The notes beneath the pieces were generated by a model. It was not told the origin of the DNA, made no database searches, and saw nothing but the letters and a program-made list of their open reading frames with translations. Below, piece after piece: positions 9,791-63,590 of a DNA stretch of 64,000 bases. The position numbers were made by a program, and so were the translations under genes. Numbering within the stretch: the first letter of the stretch is position 1; each line of letters starts with the position of its first letter. The stretch is from Azolla caroliniana (lineage: Eukaryota; Plantae; Polypodiophyta), in NCBI GenBank assembly GCA_043228905.1, contig JBHGNT010000018.1:8618001-8682000 (forward strand). The letters run 5' to 3'.

Positions 9791-10249
9791 TTGATCAAGT
9801 TTGGTTCTTACGTCACCATTTCGATACTACTCGACCTTGCAGAAATTTGGATTACAAGAAGTTGGGGCCTTTCCACATCATTGAGTGTGTCAATCCCGCT
9901 ACTTTCCGGCTGGAACTTCCTCCACATTTCCGGATTCATAATGTCTTCCATGCCTCTCTTCTCAAACCTTATCATCCATCCACTATTCCTGGAAGACACT
10001 CTCCACCTCCACCTCCAATTGAGCTTTCCACATGTGAGGAGTATGAGGTGGACAAGATTCTGGACTCTTGTTGGCATCGACGAAAACTTCAATACTTAGT
10101 CCTATGGAAAGGGTATCCCATTTCAGAGGCAACTTGGGAACCAGCCCAACACTTGGAGAATGCACCGGATGTTGTTCATGCATTTCATCACCAATATCCA
10201 CAAAAACCGGGGAGACGTCTTCGCCTAGGCGGCCTTAACAGGGGGAAAA

Positions 10250-10564
10250 TGTCAATGGACATGACAACAATCATGTCATGATTCGAACTCTTGACCTATT
10301 GTATTTAATCGATATGTTTTAACCAATACATCCAATACATAATTATGTACCTTACTAGATTATTGTAGGTTATCTATTCTACATGTAGGATTTTAGAAGC
10401 TTCCAGAAAGCTCCAGAAGCTAGAACATTCTAGAAGCTTGTGCATGAAAATGAGTCTTTGCATGGGGCTACATTTAGAGCCCATAAACATGTATAAATAC
10501 AGGGGTTCACCTTGGTTTTAGTCTCACTCTCCTAGTATTGAGCCTCGTCTACTTGTCCGTGACA
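10250..10564 (+). repeat. 3' LTR of the Tcn1-like chromovirus
   Basis: Follows the chromodomain and PPT; tgtcaatggacatgac…tgtccgtgaca; TATA tgtataaata near 10490. Confidence 0.85.
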
Positions 10565-37609: not shown

Positions 37610-40600
37610 CTGCGACATAAACTAACTAATAAGTTCGACCGAATAGCTAAGGTCCGACTGAGTGATGGTCAAGTATATCAGGTTTTCAACTATTTGTCGG
37701 AACCGTGTCAGGTCACAAGTCATTCCCGATTCGGGGCGAAGCTTGACATTCTTGTCAAGGGAGTCGGGATGGATTTGCAATCCGTCATTCTGAACTTGAA
37801 GAGCATACTCAACACATAATGTCGTTGCATGATCAGTATGCCTTCCGGGATGCGGATCACTTTGATCTTGAGGATGTAATGAAGGTCTCCCATATCCTTT
37901 ATTTCGAATGATGCGGCAAGCTAGGACTTTACGCGGTTGATTTCTTCCAGGTCGGCGCCGGTGATGACCAAGTCATCCACATATAGCAGTATGCTAACCG
38001 GCCTATTCCAACCTTGTCGGATGAACAATGATGAGTTCGACTTCGACGGAGCAAACCCCATCCAACGCAATCTTTGCGTGATCTTCGTGTTCCAAGCATG
38101 CAGGGCTTGCTTTAGTTCGTAAAGGGACTTCTTTAGTCGGCAGGCGACCGATGTGTTCAATCCGGACTGAAATCCGGGGGGTTGCACCATGTACACCTGT
38201 TCCTCAAGCTCTCCTTGCAGGAACATATTCTTCACATCCATTTGGTGTAGGTATCACGACACAATGACATAAAATACAACCTACAACCTACAAGATGTCA
38301 TGCTCAACCATTTTGATTGAACCTACAACCTCACATCAACAAGATGTCATGCTTAACCATTTTGATATGAGCATGCATTTGTATATAGTAGTTTAGTATT
38401 CTATAGTCCAACATATAATACATTTCAGAATCAGAATATTCTAGTCGTTAGTATATTCTAGAAATATTGTACGGTATATTCTAGAGATATTTCTCGAGTA
38501 TATTCTAAAGATATTCAATCACCGAACTTGTATAAATACTTGTAACATCCTTGGTCCCTTTCAAGGGATTGAACACCAGTCATTGACACATCAATCTAGT
38601 ATTCTCGTTTCATGTCATCTTGTCTCCTTCTTCCTCTTTGTCTTCATGCCCTCATGTCTCTCACAACTTCTAGAGTTCCTAACCTTGTCATTTCTAACTC
38701 CAAGTTCGTAGCCCGTCGTTCGTAGCCCCATCATCCGTGCTCTGTCCCAATCTGCACTTGGTGTGTTCGTGATAGTTTGAATCCCTTCCAATTGGAAGCA
38801 TCATCCATCTTCATCATCGTCTTTGCTTCTAGAGTTACCATCATCACCATAGTTATAGTCGTTCCTTCTAGAGACACTTCCTCATCATCATTGTCTTCAT
38901 TGCCTCGTCTTTGACATCATCATTTTTCCGCACCTCTTGTTGTCTTCATTGCTACATCGCCCAACCTTCATCATCATCAACATTACTTTGCATGGTCTTT
39001 CATTATCTTCATTGTTCCGCCCTCTTCATTGTCATTGTCATCATCTATAGGTATCATTTTGCATTCCGATTTTGGCGAGGATTGATTTCAATCGCTCACC
39101 TTCATAGTTCTGGTGGGGGTTACAATCGCTCACTTTCCTGGTGGGAATCGAATCATTGCTCGTTTGCAGTTCATTTTCATTTCGGTTCAAGTTTAACTCC
39201 ACTTTCCTTTGATGAGGATCGATTTTGAACGCTCACCTTCTCAGTTCCGGTGGGGGTTACAACCGCCCACTTTCCTGGTGGGGATCGAATCATTGCTCGT
39301 TTTCACTCCATTTTCATTTCAGTTCAAGTTTCACTCCACTTTCCTTTGGTGAGGATCAAGTTTGAACGCCCACCTTCTCAGTTCCGGTTGGGGTTACAAC
39401 AGCTCACTTTCCTGGTGGGGATCTAATCATTGCTCGCCTGCACTCCATTTTTATTTTGGTCTACATTTCGCTCCACTTTCTTTTGACGAGGATCGATTTC
39501 GATCGCTCACTTTCTAGTTCCGGTGGGGATCACAACCGCTCACTTTCTTGGTGGGTATCAACGTCGGTTTCTCGTTAACGCTACCATTTGTGCTGTGTTT
39601 TGGGTCAACCTTGACTATTTAACCTCGACCTCTTCACATGCACTCCTTCGCCCATTGTTGTTCCAGTTCCCAGTGAGGATACTTGTTGCTCCATCATCCG
39701 TGCTCCGTCCCAATCCGCGCTTTGTGTGTTCGTGATGGTAGGTACCATCCCTTCACCGCCGCTACTGCAAGCAGCACCCGGACGACTGGCATTTTGGCAA
39801 TCGGCGCGAATGTTTAGTTGTAATCGATGCCGCGCTGCTATGTGCAACTCTTGGCCACTAGTTGGGCTTTGTATCAGTTAATGGAGCCGTCGCCGTTGTA
39901 CTTCACTTTGTATACCGACCGAAATCCGATTGGATTCACACCCTTGGGAGCATAAACTAGATCCCATGTTTCTTTCTCCATTAGTGCGCACATCTCTTCC
40001 TCCATTGCGGCTCGCCAATTGGCGTCCTTCACCACCTCTGCATAGTTCCCTACCTCACACACTTCCGCCACCTTCGCCATATACACATAATGATGCACCA
40101 TATGCTCATTATAGCAGTACCAGATCATGGGGTTCTTCTGGCAGGTGGATTGACGCAACTTCTGGTCTGCCGATTCTCTGACCTCAATTCTGGAGGTCCA
40201 TCTTCACTCCTGGCTGCATCGGATTCACTTCGGTCCGATGCGCCGACCTCTATGCCGTATTCTGGCATCTTCATCTTCCCCTTCTCCTTGCGCATAATCC
40301 ATCTCCTCGGCTTCTAGCGCAAGGATTGCATGACCGAGTCTTCGCTACTCGCCGACTTCTCATCCGGTTGGCCATCCTGGCTCAACCAATCCGGATTTGG
40401 CCCACAGAGCCAGAAGGCGATTGGACTATCTGGAAGTCCATATTCCACCCCATCTCTAACTGAGTTGGTCTCAATGACCTCATCCCTAGTAATCGGCTTG
40501 GAGTCTTCGGGAGTCAGAGACAGAAGGGAATACCAAGACATTGATTCCTTAAAGATGACATCATGGCTCACTCACACTTGCTTCGTCTAGGGGTTGTAAC

Positions 40601-42418: not shown

Positions 42419-45400
42419 TGTCATGATATAGCATGATATGGCATTAAAAGGATTTGAACCCATGACCTTGTGTAACATGGGTTAAAGCCCTACCATTAAG
42501 CTATACATTGTAATATAAAGATTGTTTTTATTTATTATTTTATTATAGAAAATTGTTATATATTCTAGATTTCTTTGGAACATTCTAGAAACTTCAGGAG
42601 TACTCCTGACAACACTATAAAAAGAGGCACAAGGCATTATTTCGAACCCATTAGGTTCAACTCCAGTCTTAAGCCTCCTAGCTATTGTTGTACTTACTCT
42701 TCATATAATATATGACCTGTTATCATCATTCTCTCTCTCTCTCTAACACATTATACTATACATGTTGCACCTAACTACAAAACCATATTCTTTGCAGAAC
42801 GGGGAAACCGTACACATCGATACATGTTAGAGTCCATATCGTTATTGGCTATGCACATTTTGTCCTAAACAAGTTCGCGAGTCTAAGTATCACACTTTGA
42901 TACAATGCTCTGCCTTTGATCATATTCGACCATGCTTTCAACATGTCTTTGACCGAGCCCAATCCTTGCATGAATTCCTCTCACAACCACAATGTGCACT
43001 CTCGATTGCAACATTCATTGGTAAAGTTCATGAACATCAATAGTCACTACTCACTTTCACATGTATCACGTGAAATGTAATATTTTTGGTCTCATAGGTC
43101 ATATTTGACCTCCGAAGACGATAATATAATCTCTCTCTCTCTCTCTCTCGTGTGTCTTACACACTCCCTTCCTCTTAGTATTAATCCTTATAGTACTTTC
43201 CTTCTCTAGTACTAATTCTCTCTCTTATCCTCTTATCCCTCCTTCCCTTCATACTAATCTTCTTATCCTCCCTAGTAAATGGAATCTGTTAGCACTCAAG
43301 AATACCAATCTTTTTTCTTAGAGCTCTAGTGCTTAACAGAGAAGTTTGTAGCACTAGATCAAGAAAATCATTGTCGGTTGGGGGATCTTCAACAAATAGC
43401 TCTACAAAAACAACAACACGGGGAGCTGACATTACGTGTGAAACAACTTGAAGTGACTATTGACAGTATCATTACAACAACAAGGATCAAATGCTCAAGG
43501 GACTCACAAAGAACCCAAGATCGGTCTTTCTATGAAATTTGATGGGACCTGATCATAGTTTAGAGGCTTTCTTAATTAGGTACGTTTAGTGATTCAAATG
43601 CATCCTTCTCGATATCCCACCGATGCATCACGAGTGGGAGTAGTAGGCACGTTACTTAGTGGCACGACTTTGGCATGGTTCGCCCCCCTGTTAGAAAAAA
43701 AGCTCTGAGTCCCTTGTTAAATAATTTTGAAGAGTTTATTAGCGAGTTTAAAGCTTGTTTTGGAGATATCGACAACGTTAGGATGACAATCAACAAAATC
43801 CGAAGATTGCGCCAAGGTGATCGGTCGGCCTTAGCTTATGTTGTGGATTTCCGTCTTCTCGCCACTGATAGTCCTTGGGATGACCACACATTAAAGGAGA
43901 AATTTTGTTATGGCCTACGTTATGATGTTAAGGATTTACTCTTGACTTTCCCCGAAGAGCCAAAGTCATTGACAGAAGTAATCAGTCGCGCGGTACGATG
44001 CGATAACCGCCTTTTCGAACGACGTTCAAAACGTCAGTTCCAGATGCCAAGGACAAGATCAGAGCCCACCAATGCCTTAGTTGTAGCAAAACCTTTTCCA
44101 AGGGAGTCATATAATGTGTCTCCAACAAATAGTCCAACTCCGATGGAAATCGACACCACACGTTGTTGCAGATCATTATCGGAAGAGGAAAAGCAACGAC
44201 GCCGAGCAAATCGACTATGTCTTTATTGTGGTGGACTGGGGCATATTGTAGTGAACTGTCGCCATAGACCAAGAAGACAGGTAAACCAAATAGTCGCTAG
44301 TACTAATTGTACTAAACTCGAGTCTATTTTAGTAGGAATATCTGATAGTCCTAATAGTACTAATAGCCCAAGTTCATCGAACAAATTTGATGTCCTTAGT
44401 CAGTGAGAAGAAGAGTTAAACGACTAAGTCTAGCCAAAATAGGAGCTGTTTGGTTGGACAACCCTAGATCCGTGTAGCCCATTAGTGGTTCCATTCTCTC
44501 TAAGCAAGTTAGCAATGTGTTCTTAGCTCAAGAAACAATTAGTACTAAAAGTACCCCTCCAATACATATCTTAGCACTCTTAGATTCCAAAACTAATTCT
44601 TGTTTCATGGATAGGAATTTTGCGCAAGCTCATCAGATATCCCTAAGAAAACTTCCCTGCCCAGCATTTGTAGTAGTCATTGATGGTCGTCCCATTGCTT
44701 CTGGAAATATCATAGAAGAGTCAAAGCCAATTAGTATTGTCTTAGATAATTTGCCATGTGTAGTATCATTTAATATAATTAGTAGTACAAAACATCCCAT
44801 TGTTTTAGGGTTACCATGGTTCGAATTACACAATCTGGACATAGATTGGAGAACAAGAGAAATTAGGTATCGACAACCCCAAGAACCTACTCATAAGGTT
44901 TCAACCATTTTGCTAAATCAATTGCGTGAGGAAGGACGCACAGAATCAATGTTTGTATTCGCAGTATCAGTGAAACCTTCCAACACCGCTGAGGAGTCAA
45001 CAATTCAACTTCCAAAAAAGTATCATCATTACACCGATGTTTTTGATAAGGTAAAAGCTAGTACTCTTCCTCATCATCGATCGTATGATTATCCCATTGA
45101 TTTACAACCAGGTAAAGAGCCAGCGAGGGGACCAATCTACAACTTGTCACGAACAGAGCTTGACGTTCTTCAAGCTTACATAGAGGAAAATTTGGCAAAC
45201 GGGTTCATTCGACATTTAAAATCTCCTACCGGTGCACCCATTTTCTTCGTCAAGAAAAAAGATGGCTCACTTCATCTAGTCGTGGATTACCGTGGGTTGA
45301 ATAAGGTCACCATCAGGAATAGGTATGCACTTCCCTTGGTCTCGAGTCTTTTAGAAAGGATTAATGGTGCCAAGTTTTTCACAAAAAATCAACTTACGAG

Positions 45401-48400
45401 GAGCATATAACCTCGTACGGATTCGACCAGGAGACGAATCGAAGACAACTTTCCGCACCTGATATGGGCACTTCGAGTATATGGTTATGCCATTCGGCCT
45501 CACAAATGTGCCAACAGTCTTCCATCACATGGCAAATGATATATTCCTAGATCTTTTGGACATCTGTTTAATCATATCTACTTGGATGATCTGCTAGTTT
45601 ATTCAAAGACACAGGAGGAGCATGATTCTCATGTACTATTAGTACTAAAACGACTACAAGAACATGGTCTTTATGCAAAGCTGGAGAAGTGTAGTTTTGA
45701 CTGTAGCCAGGTGGAATTTCTCGTCTATGTCATTTCCTCAGAAGGCATCTCTATGGATCCGGCTAAAGTCCAAATTGTGCTAGAGTGGCAGACTCCACGT
45801 TTGTTGCGAGATGTGCAATGCTTCCTAGGATTCGCAAACTTCTATTGCAAGTTTATACAAGACTACTCAAAGCTTATTTTGCCGTTTACACAACTTACAA
45901 AGAAGGGTCAATCGTTTATTTGGTCTAAGGAAGTGGACATGGCTTTTGAGGGTCTCAAGAAAGCATTTACATCGGCTCATGTTTTAACTCATATTGATCT
46001 GCAAAAACCATTTATCATGGAGGCAGACGCGTCAGATTTCGCCCTAGGTAGTATTTTATCACACAACAAGGTGACGATGAGAAGCTACATCCCTTGGTGT
46101 TTCACTCATGCAAATTTGATGCCGCCGAAATCAACTACGAGATACATGACAAGGAGCTATTAGCAATCATGGACTCTTTTGCACAATGGAGGCATTTTTT
46201 AGAAGGATCTCCTCATCAAGTCATTGTATTCAGTGATCACAAGAATCTTGCCTACTTTCAGAATGTTCGCGTGTTAAATAGACAACAAGCTCAGTGGGCC
46301 CCGTTTCTCACTCATTTTGATTTTAAGATTACATATCGTCCGGGCAAGCAACAAGGGAAGGCGGATGCATTATCACGACGCTCGTATCTAGCTCCTCGTC
46401 CGGGTGATTTGGTCTTCGACAATCAAAAGCAAGTAATCCAGGGACTGACACAACTTCAAACAATGTGGGTCTTTGACACTCCATTGGATTCCTGCATTAT
46501 CGACACCATTCGTGAAGATTTGAAGACGGATATTTTCGCTCAAGCTATTCTAGATCAAATCGATTCTTCTCAGGCATCTTGTTCTCGATCACAATAACCT
46601 GGTATAGATTATCGGCAATTCAAATGTCATAATGGATTACTCTTCTTTAAGAAACTTTTGTATGTTCCCAATGGTTCGTGCCGCCTTCGAATAGTACAAA
46701 ATTGTCATGACACATATACAACCAGAAATTTTGGTAGTACTAAAACATTGGATTAGTACACCAATCATTTTGGTGGCCCCATATGTGAAGATTTGTCGAA
46801 AACTACGTTCGGACATGTGATACATGTTGTAGAGCGAAGATGCCGAGACATCATTCATATGGTTTTTTGGAGCCATTACCGATCCCAAGCAAACCATGGC
46901 AATCTATTTCTCTTTATTTTATCACAGATCTTCCGGATTCGAGGGATTTCAATGCAATCCTAACAATGGTAGATCGATTTACTAAGATGGCACATTTCGT
47001 TCCCTGTACTAAAGAAATCACTAGTGAAGAAACCGCTGGAATTGTTATGTGTGAAGTATTTCGGCATCATGGTCTTCCCGAGAGTATCATCAGTGATCGT
47101 GGACTGCAATTCATCTCCAAATTTTGGAAGCATCTCTTTAAAATGCTCAAGGTCACTTGCAACCTCTCCTCTGGCTATCATCCCCAAACAGATGGACAAA
47201 CTGAATGTACCAATCAAACATTGGAACAATATCTTCGGTGTTTCCTAAGCTATCAACAGGGTGATTGGGCGGATATTCTACATTTTGCTCAATTTGATTA
47301 TAATAATTCTACGCACTCCTCTACTAGGGTTTCACCATTCTACACTTATATAGGCTATCATCCTCGATGGTGTATGTTAGAAACTCTTGAGTTACCCACA
47401 AATCCTAGTGTAGAGGATCATTTGGAGTGGTTACGACGAATTCAGGTAGAACTATCTACCCACCTACATCACGCCCAACAAACATGAAGGATTATGCAGA
47501 TTGTCATCGACATCCATCCCCTTTTAATATTGGAGATTGAGTATGGCTATTACGATGGCACATCAAGACTACTCAACCGTGTGAAAAACTGGATTATCAA
47601 CGGCTAGGCCCTTTCCATATTAACGGAAAAATTAATGATGTTACTTTTCACCTTGATCTTCCTCCGCAATTACGTATACATCCAATATTTCATAGTTCTT
47701 TCCTAGAACCCTATTAGGACAATACTATCCCAAGATCGTATTATACCACCTCCACTCCCCATCGAGCTTGAAGATGGACCTGACTTCGAGGTTGCTGCCA
47801 TCCTCGACTCCAAGATTGTTTGCAACAAGCTCTATTATTTGGTTGATTGGTTCAGATATAGTCCAAGCAAGCATACTTGGGAACTAGTGACGAATTTGGC
47901 GAATGCTTGAGCTCTTCTTGAAGACCTCCATCGTCAATATCCGAACAAACCAGGTCCTCAATCAAAGATGACTCGTAACACTCGTCATTTAAAGGGGGGG
48001 ATAATGTCATGATATAGCATGGTATGGCTTTAAAAGGATTTGAACCCATGACCTTATATAACATGGGTTGAAGCCCTACCATTAAGCTATATATTGTAAT
48101 ACAAAAAATATTGTTTTCATTTATTATTTCACTATAGAAAATTGATGTATATTCCAGTTTTCTCTGGAACATTCTAGAAACTTTAGGAGTACTCCTGACA
48201 ACACTATAAAAAGAGGCACAAGGCATTATTTCGAACCAATTCAGTTCAACGCCAGTCTTAAGCCTCCTAGCTATTCTTGTACTTACTATTCATATAATAT
48301 ATCACCTGTTATCATCATTCTCTCTCTCTCGTGAGTCTTACACACTCCCTCCCTCTTAGTACTAATCCTCATAGTACTTTCCTTCTCTAGTACTAATTCT

Positions 48401-48428
48401 CTCTTTGTTTTTAGTACTATTCCTGATA
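42419..48428 (+). mobile_element. Full-length Ty3/Gypsy chromovirus (Tcn1-like), pseudogenised
   Basis: LTRs at 42419 to about 43222 (with insertion) and 48005-48428; TSD gtatg/gtata; PPT aaaggggggataa. Domains: gag (PTPMEID, CLYCGGLGH), PR (LLDSK), RT (VKKKDGSLHLVVDYRGLN, YLDD), RH (DASD, DKELLA), INT and chromodomain (FEVAAILDS…YLVDW…TWE). Confidence 0.95.
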
Positions 48429-50129
48429 GTATAAGCCCATGAACAGAGCAAAAATACCCACGAGGGTGTTAGAGTCTGAATGGAAACTTCTGAATAGAAA
48501 GGCAGTGGCCACCATCAGACAATATGTTGATGTGAGTGTCCTTCAACATGTGGCAAACGACACAAATGCTTATGAGATGTGGTAGAAGTTGTGATGTCTA
48601 TATGAGATGAATAACGTCCTCAACAAATCATCTTTGATGAGAAAGATTGTGAGGCTGAAATATAGGGATGGAGAAAGCATAGTGGAGCATGTAAGTACAT
48701 TCATGGGGTATGTGAACCAACTGGCAACAACCAAGTTTCCCCTTGAGGACGCAATGCAGGCCATCCTACTACTGTGTACCCTGCCAGACAACTGGGAGAA
48801 TCTGGTGGTGACTCTCAACACCTCGTGTCAAGAAGAGAACTTGTCACCACAAGTGGTAAAGACAAGCAACTTAAATGAGGAGACTAGAAGGAAGGACAAG
48901 GGTGTCCTATGCTAGTCAGAGTCAAACTTGATTCAACATACCGACAAAGGAAGGAATCGGCAAATAAGTCTACCAAGAAGGGACAAGTCCTAAGGTAGGT
49001 CAAAGTCTAGAAGGAAACTGACATGTTTTTATTGTGGAAAGTTGTCATGACAGAGTGACATCAAATACGTAGTTAGTTGGGGATTGAACCTACATCCTCA
49101 CATCTACAAGATGTCATGCCTAACCATTTCAATATGAGCATGTATTTATGTATAATAGTTTATTGTTATTCTAGCATATAGTATATAATTTTCAGAATAT
49201 TTTAGTCTTTAATATATTCTAGAAATATTCTGTGGTGTATTCTAGATGGGTATATTCCACAGATATTTCTCAAGTATATTCTAGAGATATTCAATCTCAA
49301 AATTTGTATAAATACTTGTAACCTCCTTGGTCCCTTTCAAGAGATTCAACACTAGTCATTGACACATCAATCTACTATTCTCGTTTCATTCCATCTTGTC
49401 TCCTTCTTCATCTCTGTCTTCATGCTCTCCATAGCTTCCTAAGTTCATAGTCTCATCACTCACAACTTCTAGAGTTCTTAGCCTCATCATTTCTAGTTCC
49501 ATGTTTGTCATCCATGCTCTGTCATAGTCTGCAGTTCATGTGTCCTTGCTAGTTTGAATCCCTTCCAATTGGAAGCATCACCCATCTTCGTTATTGCCCT
49601 TGCTTCTAGAGTTACCATTGTCATAGTCCTTGCTTCAAGAGTTACCATCATTAACATCCTTGGTTTTAGAGTCGCCATCGTCACCATAGTCAAAATCATT
49701 CCTTGTAGAGAAGCTTCCTCATCATCATTGTCTTCATTGCCTCATCTTCGACATTATGATTTTTCAACACTTCTTGTTGTCTTCATCAAATGGATTGATT
49801 TCGATCACTCACCTTCACAGTTCCAGTGGGGGTTACAACCACTCACTTTCATGGTGGGGTTCGAATCATTGCCCGTTTGCAATCCAATTTCATTTTAGTT
49901 CAAGTCTCGTGCCACATTCCTTTGGTGAGGATCGATTTTGATCGCTCATCATCTAGTTCTGGTGGGGGTCACAACCACTCACTTTCCTGGTGGGGATCAC
50001 GTCTGTTTCTCACTAGCGCTATCGTTTGTGCCATGTTTTGGGTCAACCTCGACTATTTACCCTCTTATAATAGAAGAAGTCGAGTCGACCGCTTCACTTG
50101 CACTCCTTCGCCCGTTTGTGTTCCAGTTC

Positions 50130-50549
50130 TTGGTGAGGGCCGGATGGTCGCTCACTCCGGTTCGTGTTCCAGTTCCCGGTGAGGACTGCATGGTCATTCA
50201 GACTCGTTTGTGTGTCCGATGAGGACTGCACCTGGTCACTCACATTCTCATTCTCGGTGAGGGTTGCAAATGGTCGCTCACGCCTGCTCGTGGTCTAGTT
50301 CCCGGTGAGAGGGCCGCATGGTCGCTCACTCCCGCTCGTGTTCCAGTTCCCAGTGAGGGCCGCTTGGCCACTCACTCTCGCTCGTGTTCCAGTTCCCGGT
50401 GAGGACCGCATGGCCGCTCATGCCCGTTCGTGTTCCAATTCCCGGTGAGGGCCACACATGGTCGCTCACTCTTGATCGTGTTCCAATTCTTGGTGAGGGT
50501 CGCATGGTCGCTCACTCCTGTTCGTGTTCCAGTTCCCGGTGAGGACCGC
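50130..50549 (+). repeat. ~45-48-bp tandem repeat array (GAGGRCCGCATGGTCGCTCAC core), left part
   Basis: Degenerate head-to-tail units; continues at 59917. Confidence 0.9.
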
Positions 50550-50987
50550 TGTTAACTCTTAGGGCCGGACAATGGCCTAACATAGGGTGTCTACGGAAGA
50601 CACTTCACCAAAGGGGTGTTACGGCAACAGGATTAGACTCAACGATTAATCCGACTTAATTAAGTTACTTAGCAAGATCGTCCTTAATATTCACACGCGT
50701 AAGATATAACAATGAATGCAGAACGACAATTAACACAGAGAGATAACAACACTAAGCTTTATTACTTAACCGTTGTTCATTACATTGTATCCGGGCCTTT
50801 AAATAGGTTTCCAGTATGTATTACAAAACGGTGCCATCCGCACCTGTTCGGGATCGGTCCAGATCCGGAACGGCATACCGATTCCGGTCCGTCCGTCCAC
50901 ACTCATAGCTTACCTACAACCATTCCTACTAATTAAATGACTCCCCGTTTCACACTCTAGACTCCTTTGCCGGCCGGGCCGGTAACA
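50550..50987 (-). repeat. 3' LTR
   Basis: Direct repeat of 59479-59916. Confidence 0.97.
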
Positions 50988-51028
50988 CATGGCACGCCCT
51001 TGTATGTTGAATCCACATCCGACCCTTG

Positions 51029-53803
51029 CTATTCCTCGTCCAAAATATCCAGAATGCTTTGTTCGAGAGTCTCCAATGGTTCATCTGGAATTGGTTGTTG
51101 TTGTTGCTGCTCTGTTGATGGCTGCTGCGACGGGTCCGTTGGTGGCGGCTGCGGCTGCTCCTCCATTTGTTGCTCTGACACCGGCGTCTCCGTCGTTGCT
51201 CCCTCCGTCGTAGTGGTCTCCGGTGTACTGGTTCCGGGCTGGCCCTCGGCCGGCGACGGTTCCTCATCACTAAGGTTAACCGTTGCCGCTTCCCGTGCTT
51301 TTTCTTCCAGAACCCAGGACCGCTCGTAGCTTTCAAACTGGATTTGAGCGTCCAGCCTATCATCATCTAGCTGAGCTACGAGTTGCCGGACCTGCGCCAG
51401 CTGTTCATCCGCCAGGACTTGGAAGTCATCGGCCAACTCGTCCCGTATGGTGGTGAAGTCCTCAGAAGTCAACGTGTAACAATCATCTCCTTCCTTCCGC
51501 CGGTTTGCCACGTCTGCCCGTAGTAATTGGAGTTCCGCCGCATTTTGTGCCCACTTTGTCCACCATCTTACGGAGCTTTCGTCAATCAAGCGTTTTGTCT
51601 GATTCAACCATGCCCGGAGGATGCACTGAATCTGGCCCTTTCCCAACTGCGATTTGGTCTCCGCAGCTTGCCGTTCCTCCTTCAATTGCTTGATGATTTT
51701 GACGTTGTCTTCCACGTGCTCCTTGTAATGCGTCAATTGCCTTTGATATGTGCTTCGTAATTTCTGCAATACCGTTGACGCTCTCTCCTTTTCTTCCTGC
51801 TTTTGCCTCTGGAGCTCCATCCGGACCTTCTCCGCCTTGTCCAACCGTCTTGTATTTTCTGCACGTTCGTCGGCGATCGCCGTCACGGCCCGATCAACTT
51901 CCTGCTGGAGGTCGGCCATACGTTCCTTATGCTCTGTTTCCAGCCGTTTGTAGTCCCGGTGCAGGTGCTCAAAATCATCTGTCTTTTGCTTGAGCCGTGT
52001 GTTGATCTGTCGACGGGCCCGGTCCTCACGGTCCTTCTACTGGCGGAGCTCTTCCTTTAGCCGTTCCATTTCCGTTTCCGCCATCTTTCGCAACTTGTCC
52101 TTTTCCTGTAGCACTTTGTCTTTTTCCTCCCTTAGCCGGTCGTACGCTTGATGGCCTTTCCGAAGGCTCTCCTCTGCCCGGCGAAGGTTCTCAGTAGTCT
52201 TCTTTAATTCGGCTTCGGCCGCTGTCTTCAATTCCCGTTCTCGGCTCCTTAGCGCTTCTTGTGCGACAAGTTCATCTTTCAATTCCGCAAGCTCCTGGGC
52301 TTGCGCCGCATCTCTCTTTGGAACGATTTTCGTTGCCGGGGTCTTATTGGTATGTACAGGTTGATCTGTTTCTTTATTCTGTACACTTACCGGAGTCACC
52401 GGTGATTGGATCTGTGTTGTCGTTAAGGCCATTTTGGCCATCTCTACCGTGACCTGATCCAAGTCTCTTTCAAGGCACCGGATTCTGGACCGGGCCGTCT
52501 CTAGTTGTTCAGTTGTGACGAGCAACCGTTCGCTTTGCGCTCTTTCTTCCGCCTCAATATACCCCACTGCTCCGGCAATCTGTTCGCTTATCCACCGGAG
52601 CCACATGCTACCGGTGCTTTGTGATTGCGTTTGCCCGGAGGTTTGACGGATGGGCTCGCTTGTAGATGGGTGGTCCCGCTTGATTGCGCCGAGTTGCAAT
52701 TCCGTTTCTGCCCGTGGACCACCCTGCTGTCCTGGTTCCCCTTGCGCTTCTTCTTGGTTGGCCGAGGGAGGTTGCATTGACCTTTCCGGCTTTGGCGGGA
52801 TGGGACTTGCCGGTGTTGCCGGTGGTGCCGGGGCTTCTGATTCCGGTGCCATGCGCACCGGTTCCGGTTCTTGCCTTGGCATGGGAGTCTCAGTATGGGG
52901 AGCCGGTGTTCCCTCCGTCTGAGGGTCCGAACATTTCCCGACTGCCTCAAGGGTCCTTGCCGACAACCGTCGCTGGAGGTGCTCCGTAGGCTCCTCCTCT
53001 ATTTCCTCTTCCTGAGTCCCGGCATTGAGTTTTGCCGCCAAGGGGTCCGCTTCTCTATTCACCGGTCGGCGAAGTGTAACCTTTACGGGCCGTGCCGGTG
53101 GTTCCTCCTGCGCATCCGTTGGCCGCTTCCGGCTGGCGCTCTCCTTTCCCGCCTGTTCTACGTCCGCCGCCTTCCCTTTAGTGGCCTTAGAGGCCAACAA
53201 CTGTTGTCTTTTGGAAGCCATCTTTGGGGTGCCGTCCGCCACTCTTCCTTGCTTCTTGGGCTGGACGGGTGGCACAAGCAAGGTGAGCCACTGCGTTACG
53301 GCGTGCCATATCCTCCGTCCGTCTCGGCCTTCTTTGCCGTCTTTGCCTCTAACGATCTCAATCGCCACACACAACCCGTCTGCGATCAATACCGGCCAAT
53401 CCACCTTGATCCCTTCATAGGTGGCGATGATCATTCTTGCCCGGTTATGTGGCATGACAGGGGGTCTAGGGTACACATGGCCGTATTCGTGGAGCACACG
53501 AGCAATCTCGCGGAACATCATATCTCCGCCGCCCTGTGTCCGGTAGCCCTTGATGGCTAGGGAGTACTCACCAAAATACCTGATGAGTTGCTCCGAGGTC
53601 GGATTGTCAATCGTGAGTATGCCTCCCTCCGGAAGGCTTGTTAACGCTCGAATCGCCTCCGCCGTTATGACCTCTGTGTCGATTTCTTTGATCACCTTGT
53701 CGGCTTCTTTGTGTGGTGGTACCTTCATAATCATCAAGAAGCCCTCGAGCCCGTGTTGCTTTAGCCAGGTCTTGGCGGCTTCCGACAGCGTTTGCAGGTC
53801 CAT
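51029..53803 (-). CDS. Extra retrotransposon ORF of about 924 aa, unknown function (N-terminal conserved region, Pro/Glu linker, coiled coil, acidic tail); one in-frame TAG at 52037-52039
   Basis: ORFs 52037-54109 and 51029-51919 share a frame and are separated by a single TAG. Homology with 14381 places the start at MDLQTL (53803). Confidence 0.8.
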
Positions 53804-54180
53804 GTTTGTGTCGAGGTCGGCTTTTGGTGGCGAGATTGGCTGGTGATGAGAGTGAGAGTGAGTGAGAGAGAGTTCAGAAGGTGGGGGTTCTCTGTGTGTA
53901 GGTTCTCGTCTGATGATCTTGCAGTGCCTTGGTGCTTCTGTGCTCCTAGGTTCGTGAAAGTAGAGGGTCTCCACGCGTAGTGGTTTTTCTCTGTGCATTC
54001 TGGTGCCTTTTTCGAGTGTGTGCACGTCGTGTACTAAAATAGCATTATGTCCTGTGGTGGCGCTTAAATGCCCACTACGTACCTTTTTGCTCCTCGCTCT
54101 TTCGTCCATTCATTCCTCGCTTTTGCATGATTACTTCGTTTTATTTATTTATTATTTATTATTTTATTGTTAATGTGACG

Positions 54181-57100
54181 TTACTTGTCCGTTGGTCCAA
54201 TCGGACCCTTACCGGCCTCATTCTCCCCAGTTACCTGCTCGCCGTTTCTGCCGTCTTGGTGGTTGCCGTTTCCCTCATAGGTTGCCATTTCCGCACTGGT
54301 GTCGGTCCTTTGCTCAAATGGGTTTTTGGGCATCGGTCCTCTATATGGCTTCAATCGGAATCCGTTGACCCATTTGCCTAGCACTTCGCCGGCAAGTGTC
54401 CCTAACTGGTAGGACCCATTATACTCACGTGTCAGCCAATACGGTCCGGTCCATCTAAACCGTAGTTTACCCGGCATCTTGCTCATCTAGGTCTGAAATA
54501 CTAACACCGGTTTGCCGATTGCGAACATTTTTTCGTTTCCTTTCCTGTGCCGGTCGACAAATGCTTTCTGTCGCCGTTGTTCCAATTCTAAGTGCAGGAT
54601 GCTTTTCCAGTCGTTGTTCCTTGAGTTCACACAACGTTGTTAACCGTATTGCCTCCGACTCCTTCTCGTTCAGCCGTTCCCGTAGCTGGATCCGTAAGCT
54701 GGGTACTTGGAATTCCACTGGCATTACCGCCTCTAGTTCGAACACTAACCGGAACGGTGTTGTTCGGATGCTCGTTTTATATGCCGTCCGGTATGCCCAA
54801 AGCGCGCTATGTAGCTTGGTATCCCAATCCGTTCGGTTTTCGTTGACGATCTTCCGGAGGACATTCTGGAGCGTTTTGTTCATCGATTCCGCTAACTCGT
54901 TTGCTTGCAGATAGTATGGTGTGCTCCGTTTATAGGCAACGACATAGAATGTCGTCAGGCTTTCAACTACTTGGCCGAGAAAGTGCCCCCCTTGGTTGCT
55001 TATTAATTCGATTGGGCACCCGTAACGGCCCCAGATGTACTCGTATAGAAATTTCTCCGTTGACGCAGCGGTGATGTCTCTTAAGGCTTTGGCCTCCACC
55101 CATTTCGTGCAGTAATCCATTGCGACAATGACGTACCGATTACCCGTTCTCATTGCCGGTGGTTTGAACGGTCCAACAAAGTCCAGTCCCCACTTCTGGA
55201 ATGGCTCGAGTGGTAGTACCAGCTGGTGTGGCATACGAGCCTGCTCCGTTGGCTGGCCCATTCGCTAGCATAGGTCACATTCTTTTGCGTATCGTACCGC
55301 ATCTCTTAATGTCGTTGGCCACCATAGGCCACTTTGCCATATTTTCCTAACCGTCGCATCTCCGGCATAGTGACCTGCGGCAACTCCGCAGTGGGCTTCC
55401 CTCAGTATCAGGACCTTTTCATCGCTGCGCACAACCCGTCTCCATATGCCGTCCGCGCCCTTGTGGTAAAGTGTGTCTTGTAGTAAGCAGAAATGTCGGC
55501 TTTGCACCGCCAGACGTTTCCGTTCGTCCCGGTTCATCTCTTCCGGAGGCAGTCCTGTGCTCAGAAACTGGTGCATGTTTGTGAGCCACTTGTCTTCTTG
55601 TGCCACCGTCTCATCTGCTGCCGTTTCCGTAGTATCGGAGCATCCGGCTGTGCCACCGGATCTGGCCTAAGAACCGGCTTAATGCCTTTGCCGTTGCCGG
55701 CGCCGGCGCTTCTAATATGGCTTTCACTTTGTCCGGGTCGACTGCAATACCTTCCTGGCTCACAATATGTCCTAATAAAGTTCCACTAGACACGCCAAAT
55801 ACACACTTTGCCGGATTCAAGCTTAGCCAGTACGCTCTACACTTTTCTAGACAAAGACGGAGGTGCTGAAAATGGTCCTCCTCCCGGCTATAGACGGCGA
55901 AATCGTCAAGGAAAACCTACATAAAAGCCGGGATATATTCACCAAAGATTTCCATGATGATTCGTTGAAATGTTGCCAGTGCCGTTTTGAGTCCGAACAT
56001 CATCACCATGGCCACAAACACCACCCATTCGGTGACGAAAGCCGTTTTCTCTTGGTCGTCGGGGTGCATCCGGATTTGATTATACCCGCTGAATCCGTCT
56101 AGAAAGCTATAGACCTCATGGTCGGCGACGGCATCCAACACTCCATCTGTGAACGGGAGTGGAAACGCATCCGTTACCGTAGCCGCATTGAGTTTCCGGT
56201 AGTCCACACAAACTCGAATTTTTCCGTTCTTCTTCGGTACGACTACGATCGGGCTCAACCATGTCGCTTTCTTTACCGGACGGATAAAGCCAACTCTTAA
56301 CAGTTTGTCGATTTCCTCCTTGGCTTTGGCGGCATAATTGGGATTCATCCGGTACCGTCTTTGTGCCACTGGTTTTGCGTCCTTGCTCAAGTGAACCTGA
56401 TGCTGGTATAACTGAGGGTCGAGTCCTCGCATGTCTTCGTATGACCAGGCGAACACATCGCGAAATTCCGTGAGAAGTGTGATCATCGTCGTTTTGTCTC
56501 CGGTCTTCATCTCCTTGGCGATGTGCACCGGTTTTGTTTCGTCCGTGGTCCCTAGGTTCACCTCTTCAAGTTGCGACGCTTTTACGCGCTGTGAAACGGC
56601 CATTTCCCGTTCCAACGCTTCCTGCGCTTGCCGTAACTCCCGGATTGTGTCTTTATCCGGTTCTGCTTCAGCCTGTTCCGGCTACGGTAAGTATGGTGCT
56701 ACTGCTTCAGCAATGTCAATTTCGAAGAGGGGTATGATCTTCGGGTTTTCCTGCAAGTACTGAGCTTCTTCTTCGTCAGCTAACCCTTCTAGCATGTTGA
56801 CGCACTCTGCATACAATGGTGTACATTCCTTGCCAGTGCTCGTCCTTGGCTGTGTTGGTACCTGTACCTTGGCTTTTCCTCGTCGGAAGGTAATTATATT
56901 TTTCCTCCAATTCTGTTTGATATGTGCCATTTTCAACCATGGCCGCCCCGACAATAGTGGGTATGCGCCTTGTGCCTGTAATTGTAGCACTACTGCCGAG
57001 ATGTGAAATGTATGACCGCCCACGGTGACTTCTAATTTCCGTATTAATCCTGTCGGCCGTACTGAGCTTGTATCGGCCATCCGTAACCAGAACGGACACG

Positions 57101-59425
57101 GCTCCCACTCGTGGATTCCTAGGGCATCACACGTCAGGAGGCTTATTACATTCACCCCGGAGCCTCCGTCTATAACTGTGCCGGGGAGTTCTTTCCCTTT
57201 TACAATGGCAGTGATTACCGGACTGTTGGTGTCTACCACCATTGGTCCCTCCTCCGGATTCGAGAAGAGTACCAGTGCCGGTGATGATTCTCCTACCATC
57301 ATGGCCGTCTTCAGTCCTTCCGTGAATCTTGGCACGAGCTGTAGGAGTCTTCCTAGTGGCAGCGTAATCTGGCATTCTTGCAATGCCTGCCATATCTCGT
57401 TCTCGAAGTGACTGCCGCTGGCATGCCCTACGGTGTTCTCCTTTTGCCACTGTAAGTCTGTGACATTCTGCTCGTTTGCTTTCTTTACCCATTCCGTCGC
57501 TTGCTTCCGAATGGTCTCCTACGTCTCCCATTCCTTGGCCATGCCCTTCGACCTTGTGGTCACATGCTGCAGATCTGCCACCTCAGGGACTACCATATTT
57601 ACTGCCGGTCGTTTTTCATAGCTCTTCACCGGGCATTGATTACTATAATGACCTTCCTGTCGACAGTAGTAGCAGTAGGCTTTCCGGGTATTGCTGGATT
57701 CGGCATTGTCTGTTGTACCCGAGGCCGGTCCTGTGGTAAGTGCAGGGTTTTGGGCCGGTTGGCTGCTTGAAGCTCCTTGTTCCGGATCCCGTAGGTAGCT
57801 GCCTTTTTTGAAATGCCGTTTTTTGTTATAGTTCTTCTTATTGCGGTACTCTTGACGAGGTTGCTCGTTATATCTACCGTATTCCTCCCGTTGCTGACGA
57901 TACCCGGGGGAGTGCTCCCAGTCGTAATGTTCGTATCGTCTATTGTAATCCCGGTACCGATCATATCTATCATGCCGGTCATAGTTATCTCGCCGATCAC
58001 CGTACCGGACATCATTCTCCCGTCGATCGCCATACCGGACATCCTGTGCCGGTCGGTCGCGGTCCATTCGCCGCCAGCGTTCCTCTTCTTCATCCTGGCT
58101 GCTGCGTGGCTCTATTTGTCGGATGGGCGGTGCTTGCCGATTCAATAGATTATACTCGCACCTATTCGTTGTATGGCCCTTGGATTGACAGATTACACAT
58201 TGTGTCCTCATAGTGCATTCTAGTGCCGAGTGTCCGGAATTCAAGCAAGTTGTGCACTGTATTATTGCTTGCCGAAACCGGAGGTCTTCATCGGACGGTA
58301 ACGCCCGTTGGAGTGCTCCCAGTGTGAGCCAGGAGCTTGTCTTTTCCATCTCTCTCACCCGGTCAATGACCTGGTCGATGGTACTTGTGCGGAAGTCAAT
58401 TACTGTGCAAACCGTGCGTAGGGGTTCCCGGAGCACATTTAGGAATATAGTCCGTAATTCCTCCTCCGGGGGTGCGCGGGCAAGCTGACTATGCATCCGT
58501 TGAAACCGGATGACAAATTGGGGAATGCTCTCCCCTGCCTCCTGTCGGATGGTATAAAATAAGCCCACCATTATTGTCTAGTCCACCTCCTTTTGGAAAA
58601 AATGCAAGAATTTAGCTTTTAAATTTGCGACGGTGGTGATGGTAGATGGGTCCTGCGTCCGGCGCATCTTGCTGCCGGTCCCTCCAATGTGACGCCAAAT
58701 TCTGCTATCTTAGAGCGTTCCTCTTCTTCCGGGGTCAATTGCTAGGACACATGGTTTGCTTCCCATGTCTGTTCAAAGGTGTGAACATGAGCTTCCGCGT
58801 CCGGATCATCTCTATACTTGGAGTACTGGAACGACATGTCGTCGTCCGGTATCGGTGCGCGGGCTGGCAGTGTTGGTGGTTGTTCCGGGATTTTCTCCGG
58901 TGTCAGTGGTCTTTCCTGATTTGTTTCCGGCGTCGGTGGTCTTTCCTCTTCTTTTGGTAATGGAGGCCTCTCCTCTTTGACTTCTGGTGTCGGAGGTCGC
59001 TCTTCCTCTGCTGGTTTCGGAGGTTCCAGTCTTAGCACTTCCGGTTCCGGTGTCGGTAAGGTGTCCGATCCTTCGTCCTCCAGTCCTCCCGGGGTTTCGC
59101 TGCTGCTACGGTAGTTCGTGTGCACGCTGTATTCCCCTTCGGAATCCGATTCATACGCTGAAAAGGCTTCTGCTTCGCCTTCTCCGTTTGCCAACGCCTG
59201 GAGAAGGGATTCGGTTTCCCGGAGGTTGCTTAGGCTGCTGCCGTCATCCGGGTGCGATGTTTGCTGTAACCAGAGGGAGTCCTCCGCTACTCTTCGGATT
59301 ACGTTGGAAAACGAGCGATCCGCTCTAATTTCCTGCACCGCTTGCTGGAAAGCCTCTCGTCTCCTTTGCCTTTCGGCAAGGCGTTGAGTTTGATCTGTAA
59401 CCAGGTCGTCCGTTGATCTAGTCAT
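54181..59425 (-). pseudogene. gag-pol polyprotein of Gypsy 50550-59916
   Basis: Gag 59425-57519, PR about 57160, RT 56615-55630, INT 55606-54181 including GPY/F (RWTGPY). A few stops and frameshifts. Confidence 0.9.
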
Positions 59426-59478
59426 CCATCTGTGTCGTCGTTCGCTGCAAAAATAGGAATCGTGGTTGCCAAAAACTG

Positions 59479-59916
59479 TGTTAACTCTTAGGGCCGGACA
59501 ATGGCCTAACACAGGGTGTCTACGGAAGACACTTCACCAAAGGGGTGTTACGGCAACAGGATTAGACTCAACGATTAATCCGACTTAATTAAGTTACTTA
59601 GCAAGATCGTCCTTAATATTCACACGCGTAAGATATAACAATGAATGCAGAACGGCAATTAACACAGAGAGATAACAACACTAAGCTTTATTACTTAACC
59701 GTTGTTCATTACATTGTATCCGGGCCTTTAAATAGGTTTCCTGTCTGTATTACAAAACGGTGCCATCCGCACCTGTTCGAGATCGGTCCGGATCCGGAAC
59801 GGCATACCGATTCCGGTCCGTCCGTCCACACTCATAGCTTACCTACAAGCCTTCCTACTAATTAAATGACTCCCCGTTTCACACTCTGGACTCCTTTGCC
59901 GGCCGGGCCGGTAACA
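59479..59916 (-). repeat. 5' LTR
   Basis: Direct repeat of 50550-50987, followed by the PBS-like motif. Confidence 0.97.
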
Positions 59917-60720
59917 ACCGCATGGTCGCTCGCGCTCGTTCATGTTCCCGATGAGGACTACACATGATTGCTTGTGTTCCAGTTCCCGGTGAGGGCTGCA
60001 TGGTGACTCACTCCCACTCGTGTTGTAGTTCCCAATGAGGGCTTCCTGGTCGCTCACTCCCGTTCATGTTCGAGTTTGAGTTCTTGGTGAGGGCCGCATG
60101 GCTGCTCACCCCGTTCCTGTTCTAGTTCCCGGTGAGGGTCGCATGGTCGCTCACCCCGTTCGAGTTCTAGTTGTTGGTGAGGGCCGCATGGTCGCTCACG
60201 CCCGTTCATGTTCCAGTTCCCGGTGAGGGTCGCATGGTCACTCATGCCCGTTCATGTTCTAGTTCTCGGTGAGGGCCGCACATGGTCGCTCAATCCTATT
60301 CCTGTTCCAATTCTCAATGAGGACCGCATGGTCACTCACGGACGTTCATGTTCTCGATGAGGACTGCACATGATCACTCATGTTTGTTAGTGTTCTAGTC
60401 TTTGGTGAGGACCACACATGGTCGCTCACACCTGTAAGGGTTCTAGTTTCCGGTGAGGACTATACATGGTCGCTCACACCTGTTCATGTTCCCGATGAGA
60501 ACTGCACATGATCGCTCACACCTGTTGGGGTTCCAGTTTCTGGTGAGGATTGTACATGGTCGCTCACGCCTGTCGTTCCAATCTCCGGTGAGGACCGCAC
60601 ATGGTCACTCAAGTCCCTTGTTGTTCTAATCTCCGTTGAGGACCACACATGGTGGCTCAAGTCCGTCAGTGTTCTAGTCTTCGGTGAGGACAACATATGG
60701 TTCCTCACTCCCGTTGGTGC
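59917..60720 (+). repeat. ~45-48-bp tandem repeat array, right part
   Basis: Roughly 17 degenerate units of gaggrccgcatggtcgctcac…gttccagttcccggt. Confidence 0.9.
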
Positions 60721-61689
60721 TCCAATTCCCATCCACCCCTACACCACGCTTTCAAAAAGGTGGCCTAAAGGGGAGGATAATGTCATGACAAAATGACATC
60801 AAATACGTACTTAGTTGAGGATTGAACCTACAACCTCACATCTACAAGACGTCATGCCTAACCATTTTGATATTAGCATGTATTTATATATAATAGTTTC
60901 TTGTTATTCTAGCATACATAATTTCCAGAATATTCTAGTCTTTAGTATATTTTCGAAATATTCTATGGTGTATTCTAGAGATATTTCTCAGGTATATTCT
61001 AGAGATATTCAATCTCAGAATTGGTATAAATACTTGTAACCTCCTTGGTCCCTTTCAAGGGATTCAACACCAGTCATTGACACATCAATCTCGTATTCTC
61101 GTTTCATTCCATCTTGTCTCCTTCTTCATCTCTGTCTTCATTTTCTCCATAGCTTCCTAAGTTCATAGTCTCATCACTCACAACTTCTAGAGTTCTTAGC
61201 CTCGTCATTTCTAGTTCCACGTTCGTCATCCATGCTCCGTCGCAGTCTGCAGTTGGTGTGTCCGTGAGAAAATCCTAGACACTTCCAGAAGGACTGCTGA
61301 CTGTCAACTCAAGAAGGACAAAGGTGTTGGTAATAATGTCGAACCCAGGAAGATTCCTAATGAAAAGGGCACATCCGCCGTACCTACGAGTGCAGAGGAG
61401 ATCTTGTTCATTTGTGAGCAGGCAAGCACAAATCTTGCAAATGAAGAGTGCACCTAGGTGATCGACTCCGGTGCATCTTTCCATATCACTCCTTTGAGAG
61501 AGTGCTTCTCGACTTACATAGCTGGGGACCACGACTATGTAAAGATGGGAGATAATGGTGAGTGCAAGATAGCCGGCATAGGAAGTGTAAGGCCGATGAC
61601 GTTGACAGGTTGTTGACTCACTTTGAGGGAAGTTCAACATGTCCCCAATATCAGATTGAATTTGTATCAACTGGAAGGTATGATGATGA

Positions 61690-63590
61690 TGTCACAAACA
61701 TGACTTCCACGTTTTCGAAAAGGCGGCTATAAAGGGGAGGATAATGTCATAGACATGACAACAATCATGTCAAGATTCGAATTGTTCACCTCTTGTATAT
61801 AATTCAGTGTTATATTCTAACCAACACATCCATATACATGGTCATGTTATCTATATCTTAGTAGATTATCTATTCCAAGTTCTAGGAGTTTTTAGAAGCT
61901 TCCAAAAAGCTAGCTTCTGCATGAACATGGGTTGATGCATGGAATTACATGTAGAGGCCACAAACATGTATAAATACATGTATCTTCCTTGATCCCTTTC
62001 AATGTCCATTCAACACCAGTCATTGACACATCAATCTAGTCTTCTCATTTCATGCCATATTGTCTCTGTGATCTTCATATTTGTCTTCATGCTCTCGAGT
62101 TAATCCTAGCTTCCTAAGCTCATAGTCTCATAACTCACAACTTCTAGAGTTCCTAGCCTCGTCACACTTCTAGTTCCAAGTTCTTAGCTTGTCACTTGTA
62201 GCCCCATCATCTGTGCTCCACCTGAGCCTCTGGTTGGTGTGTCCGTGTTAGTTTTAATCCCTTCCAACTGGAAACATCACCCGTCTTCGTCATCGCCCTT
62301 ACTTCCAGAGTTATCATCATCATCCCTATCTTTGCACTTCTTATCATCTTCCATATCCTTATCTCTGCGTTTTTTGTCATTGTCATCCTTCTCCCTGTGT
62401 TTCCTGCCGTTTTCATCATTGTCTATGTGTTTCTTATCATCATCATCCCTATCTATGTGTTTCTTATCATCTTCATCGTTGTCCCTGGGTTTTCTATCGT
62501 CCTCTATATGTCTGTCTTTGTGTTTCTTTTTATCCTCAATGTCTCGATCTCTGTGTTTCTTATCCTCTTCATCTACTTCTTTGTTTCCATCATTGCCATA
62601 GACACAATCATTGCTTTCGGAGACGCGTCCTCAACATCGTTGTCTTCATTGCTTTGTCTTCGACATCATCATCTTCAACACCTCTTGGTGTTGTCATCAA
62701 CACTACTTTGCTTAGCCTTCATCGACACTACTTTGCCTAGTGGTCATCGACGTCATGTGTCCCAGTTCCTGGTCGCTCACGCCCGTTCGTGTTCGTGTCT
62801 CTGATGAGGACCGCACATGGTCGCTCACGTCCGTTCGTGTTCGTGTCTACGGTGAGAACCGCACAAGGTCGCTCATGCCCATTGGTATCCCAGTTCCCGG
62901 TGAGGACCACACATGGTCGATCGCACCCATTGGTGTTCGTGTCTCCAGTGAGGACCACACAAGGTTGCTCATGCCCGTTGGTGTTCGTGTCTCCGGTGAG
63001 GACTGCACATGGTCGCTCACGCCCATTGGTGTTCGTGTCTCTGGGAGGACCGTACATGGTCGCTCATGCCCGTTGGTGCTTCAATTCCCGATGAAGGACC
63101 ATACATGGTCGCTCATGTTCACTCATGTTCCATTCTCCGGTGAGGACCACACATGGTCAGCCACTCCTCAACCTACTTCAGTTTTCTCTTTCAGCTCACC
63201 CCTACACCACGCTTCTGAAAAGGAGGCCATAAAGGGGAGAATAATGTCACGAACATGACTACCACGCTTCCGAAAAGGTGGTCGTAAAGGGGAGGATAAT
63301 GTTACGGACATGACAACAGTCATGTCAAGATTCAAACTCTTCACCTCTTGTATATAGTCAAGTGCTATATTTTTTATAAAAATTATCCTCCATTAGTATT
63401 AAGATTAAAATAGCCAAAGGCAAGATACTCAAGTGCTATATTCTAACCAACACATCCATATAGATGCTCATGTTATCTATAACTTAGTAGATTATTAGTA
63501 GATTATTTATTCCAAGTTCTAGGAGTTTTTAGAAGCTTTTGCATGAAAATGGGTCGATGCATAGAACTATATGTAGAGGCCACAAACATG
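61690..63590 (+). mobile_element. Non-autonomous LTR element, copy 3 (variant LTR); 3' LTR interrupted at 63591
   Basis: 5' LTR about 61690-62250, low-complexity region 62270-62740, 48-bp repeats at 62760-63160, PPT aaggggagaataa, 3' LTR from 63245. Confidence 0.85.

Follow-up and report, generated by a model that had tools for sequence, protein, structure and literature searches.

The window, as the 64-kb stretch of DNA analyzed here is called, contains a non-coding family of LTR retrotransposons (family A) in three copies. These very probably represent an element that likely primes reverse transcription with its own first 11 nt and is likely helped in trans by Tcn1-type chromoviruses. A first-pass annotation of this DNA had proposed a self-primed, non-autonomous parasite. 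All motifs quoted there are present at the positions given for them, and the proposal is supported by the lack of a match to tRNA 3' ends and by compensatory pairing between primer and PBS.

The window belongs to a 523-Mb eukaryote assembly and consists of nested LTR retrotransposons (Table 1). Copy 2 is an entire element (49043-61269), interrupted by a nested gypsy element of 9.4 kb, and is inserted in the gag zinc-knuckle region of a copia element, as judged from the host frame read from the sequence. Its LTR pair differs in 38 of 489 aligned columns, which indicates that this copy is old, and its TSD matches at three of five positions. The nested gypsy element shows nine differences between its LTRs and has a perfect 5-bp TSD; a TGG-type PBS follows its 5' LTR (50988-51030), and its 3' LTR is preceded not by a purine tract but by a tRNA-like stretch that ends in CCA and amounts to a second PBS in inverted orientation (59440-59478). 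In copy 1, little of the 3' LTR is left, yet the 5-bp TSD is still perfect. The primer segment of copy 3 is diverged, as the annotation had stated. In both LTRs of this copy (61690-61745 and 63245-63300), and also in locus L033, about 15 nt of the LTR start are followed by a jump back of about 40 nt to upstream of the PPT and a restart, so that both copy 3 LTRs carry a duplicated PPT-U3 junction internally. A further copia element in the window (LTRs at approximately 3969-4375 and 9391-9791) harbors a long purine-rich stretch after RNase H (8760-9390) with a 195-codon open frame that has no Pfam match. A copy of the window region with 99% identity is located on contig C232 (L002, L027, L166) and, to judge by sequence, is likely an unmerged haplotype.

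Table 1. Features of the window; positions count from its first nucleotide.
Feature	Position	Strand	Remarks
Family C coding chromovirus, 3' end	9727..10564	+	SH3, chromodomain, LTR 10250-10564 with primer region deleted
Copy 1	38252..39737	+	5' LTR 38252-38774, interior, 3' LTR cut down to U5 end
Copy 1, primer	38563..38573	+	one mismatch
Copy 1, PBS	38777..38787	+	
Family D coding chromovirus, decayed	42419..48428	+	12-mer at TATA+33 design; PBS lost in this copy
Copy 2, 5' LTR	49043..49551	+	U3 through 49338; predicted R start 49339
Copy 2, TATA box of 5' LTR	49307..49314	+	32 nt ahead of primer 11-mer
Copy 2, predicted self-primer of 5' LTR	49339..49349	+	11 nt; one mismatch to PBS (decayed copy)
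Copy 2, R arm of R-U5 stem	49355..49370	+	predicted fold; partner is U5 end, ~49534-49550
Copy 2, spacer and PBS	49552..49564	+	spacer 2 nt (49552-49553), PBS 11 nt (49554-49564), complementary to primer
Copy 2, non-coding interior, 5' part	49565..50549	+	pyrimidine-rich leader; 137-nt and 46-48-nt tandem repeats
Nested Ty3/gypsy in copy 2	50550..59916	-	younger, outside the family; 438-nt LTRs
Copy 2, non-coding interior, 3' part	59917..60766	+	array of 48-nt repeats
Copy 2, polypurine tract	60767..60780	+	
Copy 2, 3' LTR	60781..61269	+	perfect primer 11-mer at 61057-61067
Copy 3	61690..63590	+	5' LTR 61690-62250, different U3 type, duplicated PPT junction
Copy 3, diverged primer segment	62001..62013	+	
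Copy 3, spacer and PBS	from 62251	+	PBS 62253-62263
Copy 3, 3' LTR	from 63245	+	disrupted by a further insertion

Family A possesses LTRs, a PBS, a PPT, TSDs and many dispersed copies, and lacks a polyprotein. Its interior measures 0.84-1.49 kb at 16 loci, and the elements amount to about 1.5-2.9 kb. The non-coding status claimed for the family holds: apart from nested inserts, the interiors of these 16 loci contain no match to family C proteins, and the longest ATG-initiated ORF in the interior of copy 2 has 61 codons. At least three U3 types occur in the family on a single R-U5-leader core.

Mature tRNAs end in CCA, and a standard PBS therefore requires a TGG beside the LTR. No TGG is located within 5 nt of the LTR end in family A. 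Instead, as had been claimed, the PBS is an 11-nt tract positioned 2 nt past the 5' LTR, which pairs with an 11-mer of the LTR located 32 nt after the TATA box. The chance expectation for an exact 11-mer is 5e-5 per LTR, and 20000 shuffles produced none. The 11 bp at an offset of 2 nt also agree with the criterion used for predicted self-priming, which demands complementarity of 10 nt or more between the LTR and a tract beginning 0-5 nt downstream of the 5' LTR (PMC6317226). The annotation had suggested a comparison of the PBS with the tRNA 3' ends of the species, and none matched: pairing reached 2 nt at best among 60 distinct tRNA sequences, an incomplete set that represents 13 anticodons and was called in loci around 62 matches. 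Genes for tRNA-Lys(TTT)/Asn, tRNA-Ile(TAT) and tRNA-Arg(TCT) occur in tandem arrays with many decayed copies (L118, L125 and L126 on contig C5, L135 on C2, L136-L137 on C11). The primer is positioned at TATA+32 in A, A' and C types and at TATA+33 in D. A C/A step at the primer start, with a pyrimidine before the 11-mer, was found in 67 of 78 A LTRs and 56 of 60 C LTRs; a position at TATA+32/33 behind a pyrimidine is the usual geometry of plant transcription starts.

Both the 11-nt PBS duplex and the neighboring R-U5 stem that had been proposed were recovered in predicted folds of the segment from the 11-mer to 25 nt beyond the PBS. The primer duplex had a mean pair probability of 0.88-0.95 in 11 of 15 copies, whereas the four remaining copies, all with mismatches, gave 0.48-0.78. 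The predicted order in A and C types is the 11-bp duplex, a bulged nucleotide 12, two spacer pairs and the R-U5 stem; by folding, the R-U5 duplex lies beside the primer duplex in A, A' and C and is absent in D. A third duplex between leader and LTR, as in the Tf1 'pretzel', did not exceed shuffled leaders in any of 10 copies (p 0.09-0.91), a test that a short stem could escape.

The pairing is conserved through compensatory changes in A', C and D, a check that had likewise been suggested. Among 53 distinct 5' LTR rows, which include two near-duplicate pairs and one rearranged row, all 11 positions are paired in 33 (with G-U allowed) and one mismatch occurs in 13; the remaining seven include one-base register shifts and copy 3. 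The PBS side of these rows is biased toward perfect, because an exact PBS pattern located most of the loci. Subfamily A' (L226, L229, L231) has R-U5, leader and 48-nt repeats in common with A at 75-81% identity, whereas positions 5-8 of the primer have switched together with the four PBS positions opposite them, from G-C to T-A, from A-T to G-C and twice from T-A to A-T. The resulting primer:PBS pair is that of family C, in which five of seven 5' LTR loci pair perfectly and two carry one change. Family D harbors an unrelated 12-mer at TATA+33 together with a matching PBS, and both sides have also changed together in the single copies L220 and L174. Among six selected copies with a variant PBS, a compensating primer change was present in one (L220) and absent in five; most PBS variants are decay after insertion.

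Family C, a family of coding chromoviruses in the same genome, was found starting from the LTR at 10250-10564 of the window. Its elements of about 5.4 kb encode Gag, PR, RT, RH, IN, SH3 and Chromo (domains by Pfam, order by tblastn). The named relatives among 120 listed for its integrase come from Parasitella and Calocera (two fungi), from Xenopus and from one entry labelled Enterococcus. As these few named relatives match the host range of the Tf1/sushi group (two fungi, Xenopus), family C is likely a Tcn1-type (Tf1/sushi) chromovirus, placed by nearest neighbors in sequence comparison. The range of Tcn1 suggests that the host is a non-seed plant. The U3 of A' is 82% identical to that of coding C2 elements and A' terminates in a chromodomain remnant; between the copy 3 LTR and C1 the identity is 71%. 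No coding element with an A-type primer occurred among the first 100 (38 of A type, 62 of C type) of 519 general PBS matches, and the helper of A proper is therefore deduced through A'. Thus Tcn1-type chromoviruses of the same genome, acting in trans, are the likely helper. Family A is a non-coding derivative or parasite of these chromoviruses and not a member proper, because the polyprotein is missing and a chromodomain remnant occurs in A' only. One family C LTR (L074, G000:C20:13516148-13517787) holds eight tandem 173-nt pieces of TATA, primer and R.

Some PBS copies do not continue into the leader but run into the reverse complement of U3, and the join falls within the 11-mer. In exact counts, the A type shows 144 normal U5-PBS-leader junctions in the genome, 18 matches to the inverted pattern, 17 of which are inverted U3, and one reciprocal junction, i.e. 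reversed leader joined to R. The C type shows 376 normal, 27 PBS-to-inverted-U3 and one reciprocal junction; of these 27, 25 were called as inverted U3 by script, one more was recognized by eye and one keeps just 12 nt. One inverted junction was found in the D type. For A and C combined, there are about 12 normal junctions for each inverted one (520 to 44), and inverted outnumber reciprocal junctions 44 to 2 (binomial p 3e-11 against symmetry), with search patterns of similar though not identical stringency and with a few junction copies on unplaced contigs that duplicate others (L094/L108, L285/L288). Simple reciprocal inversion between primer and PBS is ruled out by the ratio of 44 to 2. Both ends were present in 14 junction elements, and the second end of the other copies was unrecognizable in the DNA examined. 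Nine of the 14 have a perfect 5-bp TSD (L196, L207, L209, L222, L283, L285, L294, L303, L308), three a TSD with one mismatch and two none. L222 (G000:C2:3115286-3115901) consists of U3-R-U5-PBS-inverted U3 in 616 nt, with arms identical at 247 of 250 positions and a perfect TSD. Like L196, it has U3-type ends on both sides within the TSD; in L294 the PBS is located behind a 3' LTR. This suggests that formation preceded integration, and the inverted junctions are likely products of mis-primed reverse transcription. Dozens of scrambled genomic copies thus likely record misfiring of the primer:PBS pairing. At L210, different U3 types flank the inverted junction, which points to recombination between co-packaged subfamilies.

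In the C types, positions -19 to -10 ahead of the primer are the complement of the primer. The pairs of this U3 arm are conserved in 47-60 of 60 LTRs, in contrast to the diverging flanks and loop, and the pair -8/-3 is C-G in 25, A-T in 17 and T-A in 14 of the 60; these counts derive from related copies and not from independent events. By folding, the U3 hairpin, which comprises 12 bp in C types, reaches -14 to -19 kcal/mol in C and A' and is weaker elsewhere, with -5 to -11 kcal/mol in A and -3 to -7 kcal/mol in D. Arm positions -9 to -15 (and -18) are still paired in the A type. Because the hairpin forms only where U3 precedes R, i.e. in the RNA of the 3' LTR and in plus-strand DNA, the arm would mask the second primer copy: in this model, it would hide the primer in the 3' LTR and leave the 5' copy free. 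The prediction that a weak arm raises the rate of inverted junctions was followed in direction, with 17 of 161 in A (10.6%) against 27 of 403 in C (6.7%), at p 0.16. The loop of the U3 hairpin is flipped between the 5' and 3' LTR of L229 (G000:C2:11020400-11026900), and its orientation likewise varies in the junction copies L273 and L278. As the two LTRs of one element differ in this way, some flips of the hairpin may have an origin other than reverse transcription.

By analogy with Tf1, transcription would start at the 11-mer, the RT/RNase H of the helper would cleave between nucleotides 11 and 12, and the 3' end of the released primer would then copy the 2-nt spacer and U5. Tf1 reportedly keeps its primer on the cDNA. 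Complementarity between the PBS and the beginning of R would allow a plus-strand end carrying the copied primer to anneal to an R start and then copy U3 backwards. This would restore an integrase end, and products with integrase ends on both sides could be integrated.

Alternatively, a tRNA fragment might prime, with self-complementarity as a by-product or serving strand transfer only. Among the 13 anticodons sampled, tRNA-Arg(TCT) has an internal stretch that can pair with the PBS region of the A type over 8-9 nt, but this best internal match (9 bp) begins 5 nt away from the LTR, and its use would require a 3' end within the tRNA body. The C-type PBS matches no tRNA above 6 bp, with 3'-end pairing of no more than 2 nt, and in three families the changes of the PBS follow the 11-mer of the LTR and not a tRNA. 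Priming by tRNA was rejected on the 3'-end pairing in the 60 sequences, and the fragment version is highly improbable. The 11-mer could also be the primer without being the RNA 5' end, if transcription started upstream, inside or before the U3 arm; alternatively, the primer could be taken from the 3' R copy or from a second RNA and freed by cleavage. Given an upstream start, the 12-bp hairpin of the C types could be a 5' structure, and L197, L214 and L294, in which U3, PPT and internal sequence are joined upstream of the primer, look as priming from the 3' R predicts. Against this, the 11-mer of three families follows a pyrimidine and lies at TATA+32/33, an upstream start would trap the primer within the hairpin, and normal junctions by far outnumber inverted ones. 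Either version of this explanation is regarded as improbable.

The interpretation of the junctions faces a stronger competitor, in which self-priming is correct, the U3 arm has a promoter role instead of masking the primer and the inverted junctions are DNA rearrangements after insertion (replication template switches at the 11-bp inverted repeat) or assembly artefacts. An inversion within an element leaves its TSD intact, and the many additional deletions and switches at microhomologies in junction copies, the loop flip of L229 and the lack of a significant difference between the inverted rates of A and C are consistent with this explanation. Contigs of four public runs contain related copies; among those listed the L222 junction is unbridged, which is uninformative as to its absence. 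In-place inversion, however, predicts equal numbers of reciprocal junctions, which were not observed, and neither the two U3-type ends inside the TSD of L222 and L196 nor the PBS behind a 3' LTR in L294 resemble its products. Moreover, the A, C and D types all have such junctions, located at different sites, and their arms have aged to 85-100% identity, unlike read chimeras. Rearrangement or artefact, together with the promoter role, is regarded as unlikely. Taken together, the observations permit a joint reading that is somewhat less likely than not: mis-primed U3-inverted products, which make up about 7-11% of surviving PBS junctions, would be a hazard of self-priming and still integrate, the Tcn1 U3 hairpin would have evolved to silence the 3' primer, and the parasite would have rewired primer and PBS into a private pair that is still cut by the helper RT. 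If this reading is true, inverted junctions prove self-priming without bench work, since tRNA-primed elements cannot leave them.

The usual sizes of TRIM and LARD elements flank that of family A, and elements of these types are tRNA-primed. In plants, self-priming was predicted for 83% of 1500 elements of Tcn1, which belongs to the Tf1/sushi group and has a 5-bp TSD, and also for TAR copia elements (PMC6317226); for SM-Tcn1, Novikova et al. found evidence of neither priming mode (PMC2864245). The surprise is lowered accordingly: the self-priming core was already to be expected from print, and the additions are co-variation, polar junctions and the U3 arm. The first-pass annotation mentioned neither the published prediction for Tcn1 nor the helper family nor the copies with inverted junctions. 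Family A resembles plant Tcn1 (Neumann et al. 2019, PMC6317226; PMC2864245) in its chromodomain Ty3/gypsy helper, its 5-bp TSD and the lack of a tRNA PBS. It differs from the coding elements of that survey (PMC6317226) in having no coding capacity, and the primer:PBS pair of subfamily A is absent from the coding elements sampled here. The available portions of the plant Tcn1 literature (PMC6317226, PMC2864245) mention neither a test for co-variation nor inverted junctions nor a U3 arm.

Following cleavage by RNase H, Tf1 uses its own first 11 nt as primer (PMC7175516, PMC5341516, PMC4600332), and it requires three duplexes (PMC10085805). An 11-nt primer complementary to a PBS just past the 5' LTR is shared with Tf1/Tf2 of Schizosaccharomyces pombe, Tj1, Tosmo1-3 and Tcry1 (PMC7175516, PMC10085805, PMC4600332, PMC5341516), as are the adjacent U5-end/R duplex and the predicted cut after nucleotide 11. 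In contrast to Tf1, where the mechanism is proven, it is deduced here; the element is non-autonomous, the third duplex is unsupported and the 2-nt spacer is predicted to pair with R nucleotides 13-14. The TAR lineage of Ty1/copia (Houba, Osr-1; PMC6317226) likewise consists of plant elements with predicted self-priming, but belongs to another superfamily, whereas the partner here carries a chromodomain and has its domains in the gypsy order. TRIM, LARD, Dasheng and Cassandra (PMC6934838) also possess LTRs, PBS and PPT, lack an ORF and harbor internal tandem repeats; the PBS of family A differs in being self-complementary and not of tRNA type. The available text of PMC3601003 and PMC6934838 contains nothing on this family. 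Inverted junctions, a U3 arm or a self-primed non-autonomous plant (Tcn1-derived) element were not found in the literature searched, most subscription papers being outside its reach.

Self-priming in plants has so far rested on complementarity alone (PMC6317226). Here, the prediction gains co-variation within a family and an independent genomic trace in the form of polar inverted junctions with TSDs. If the interpretation is true, counting junctions would be a cheap test for lineages with predicted self-priming (Tcn1, TAR, sushi), and the U3 arm would explain why only one of two primer copies is used. The A/A' pair would then show that the RT reads structure over primer sequence, and non-coding parasites would thereby be free to drift from their helper.
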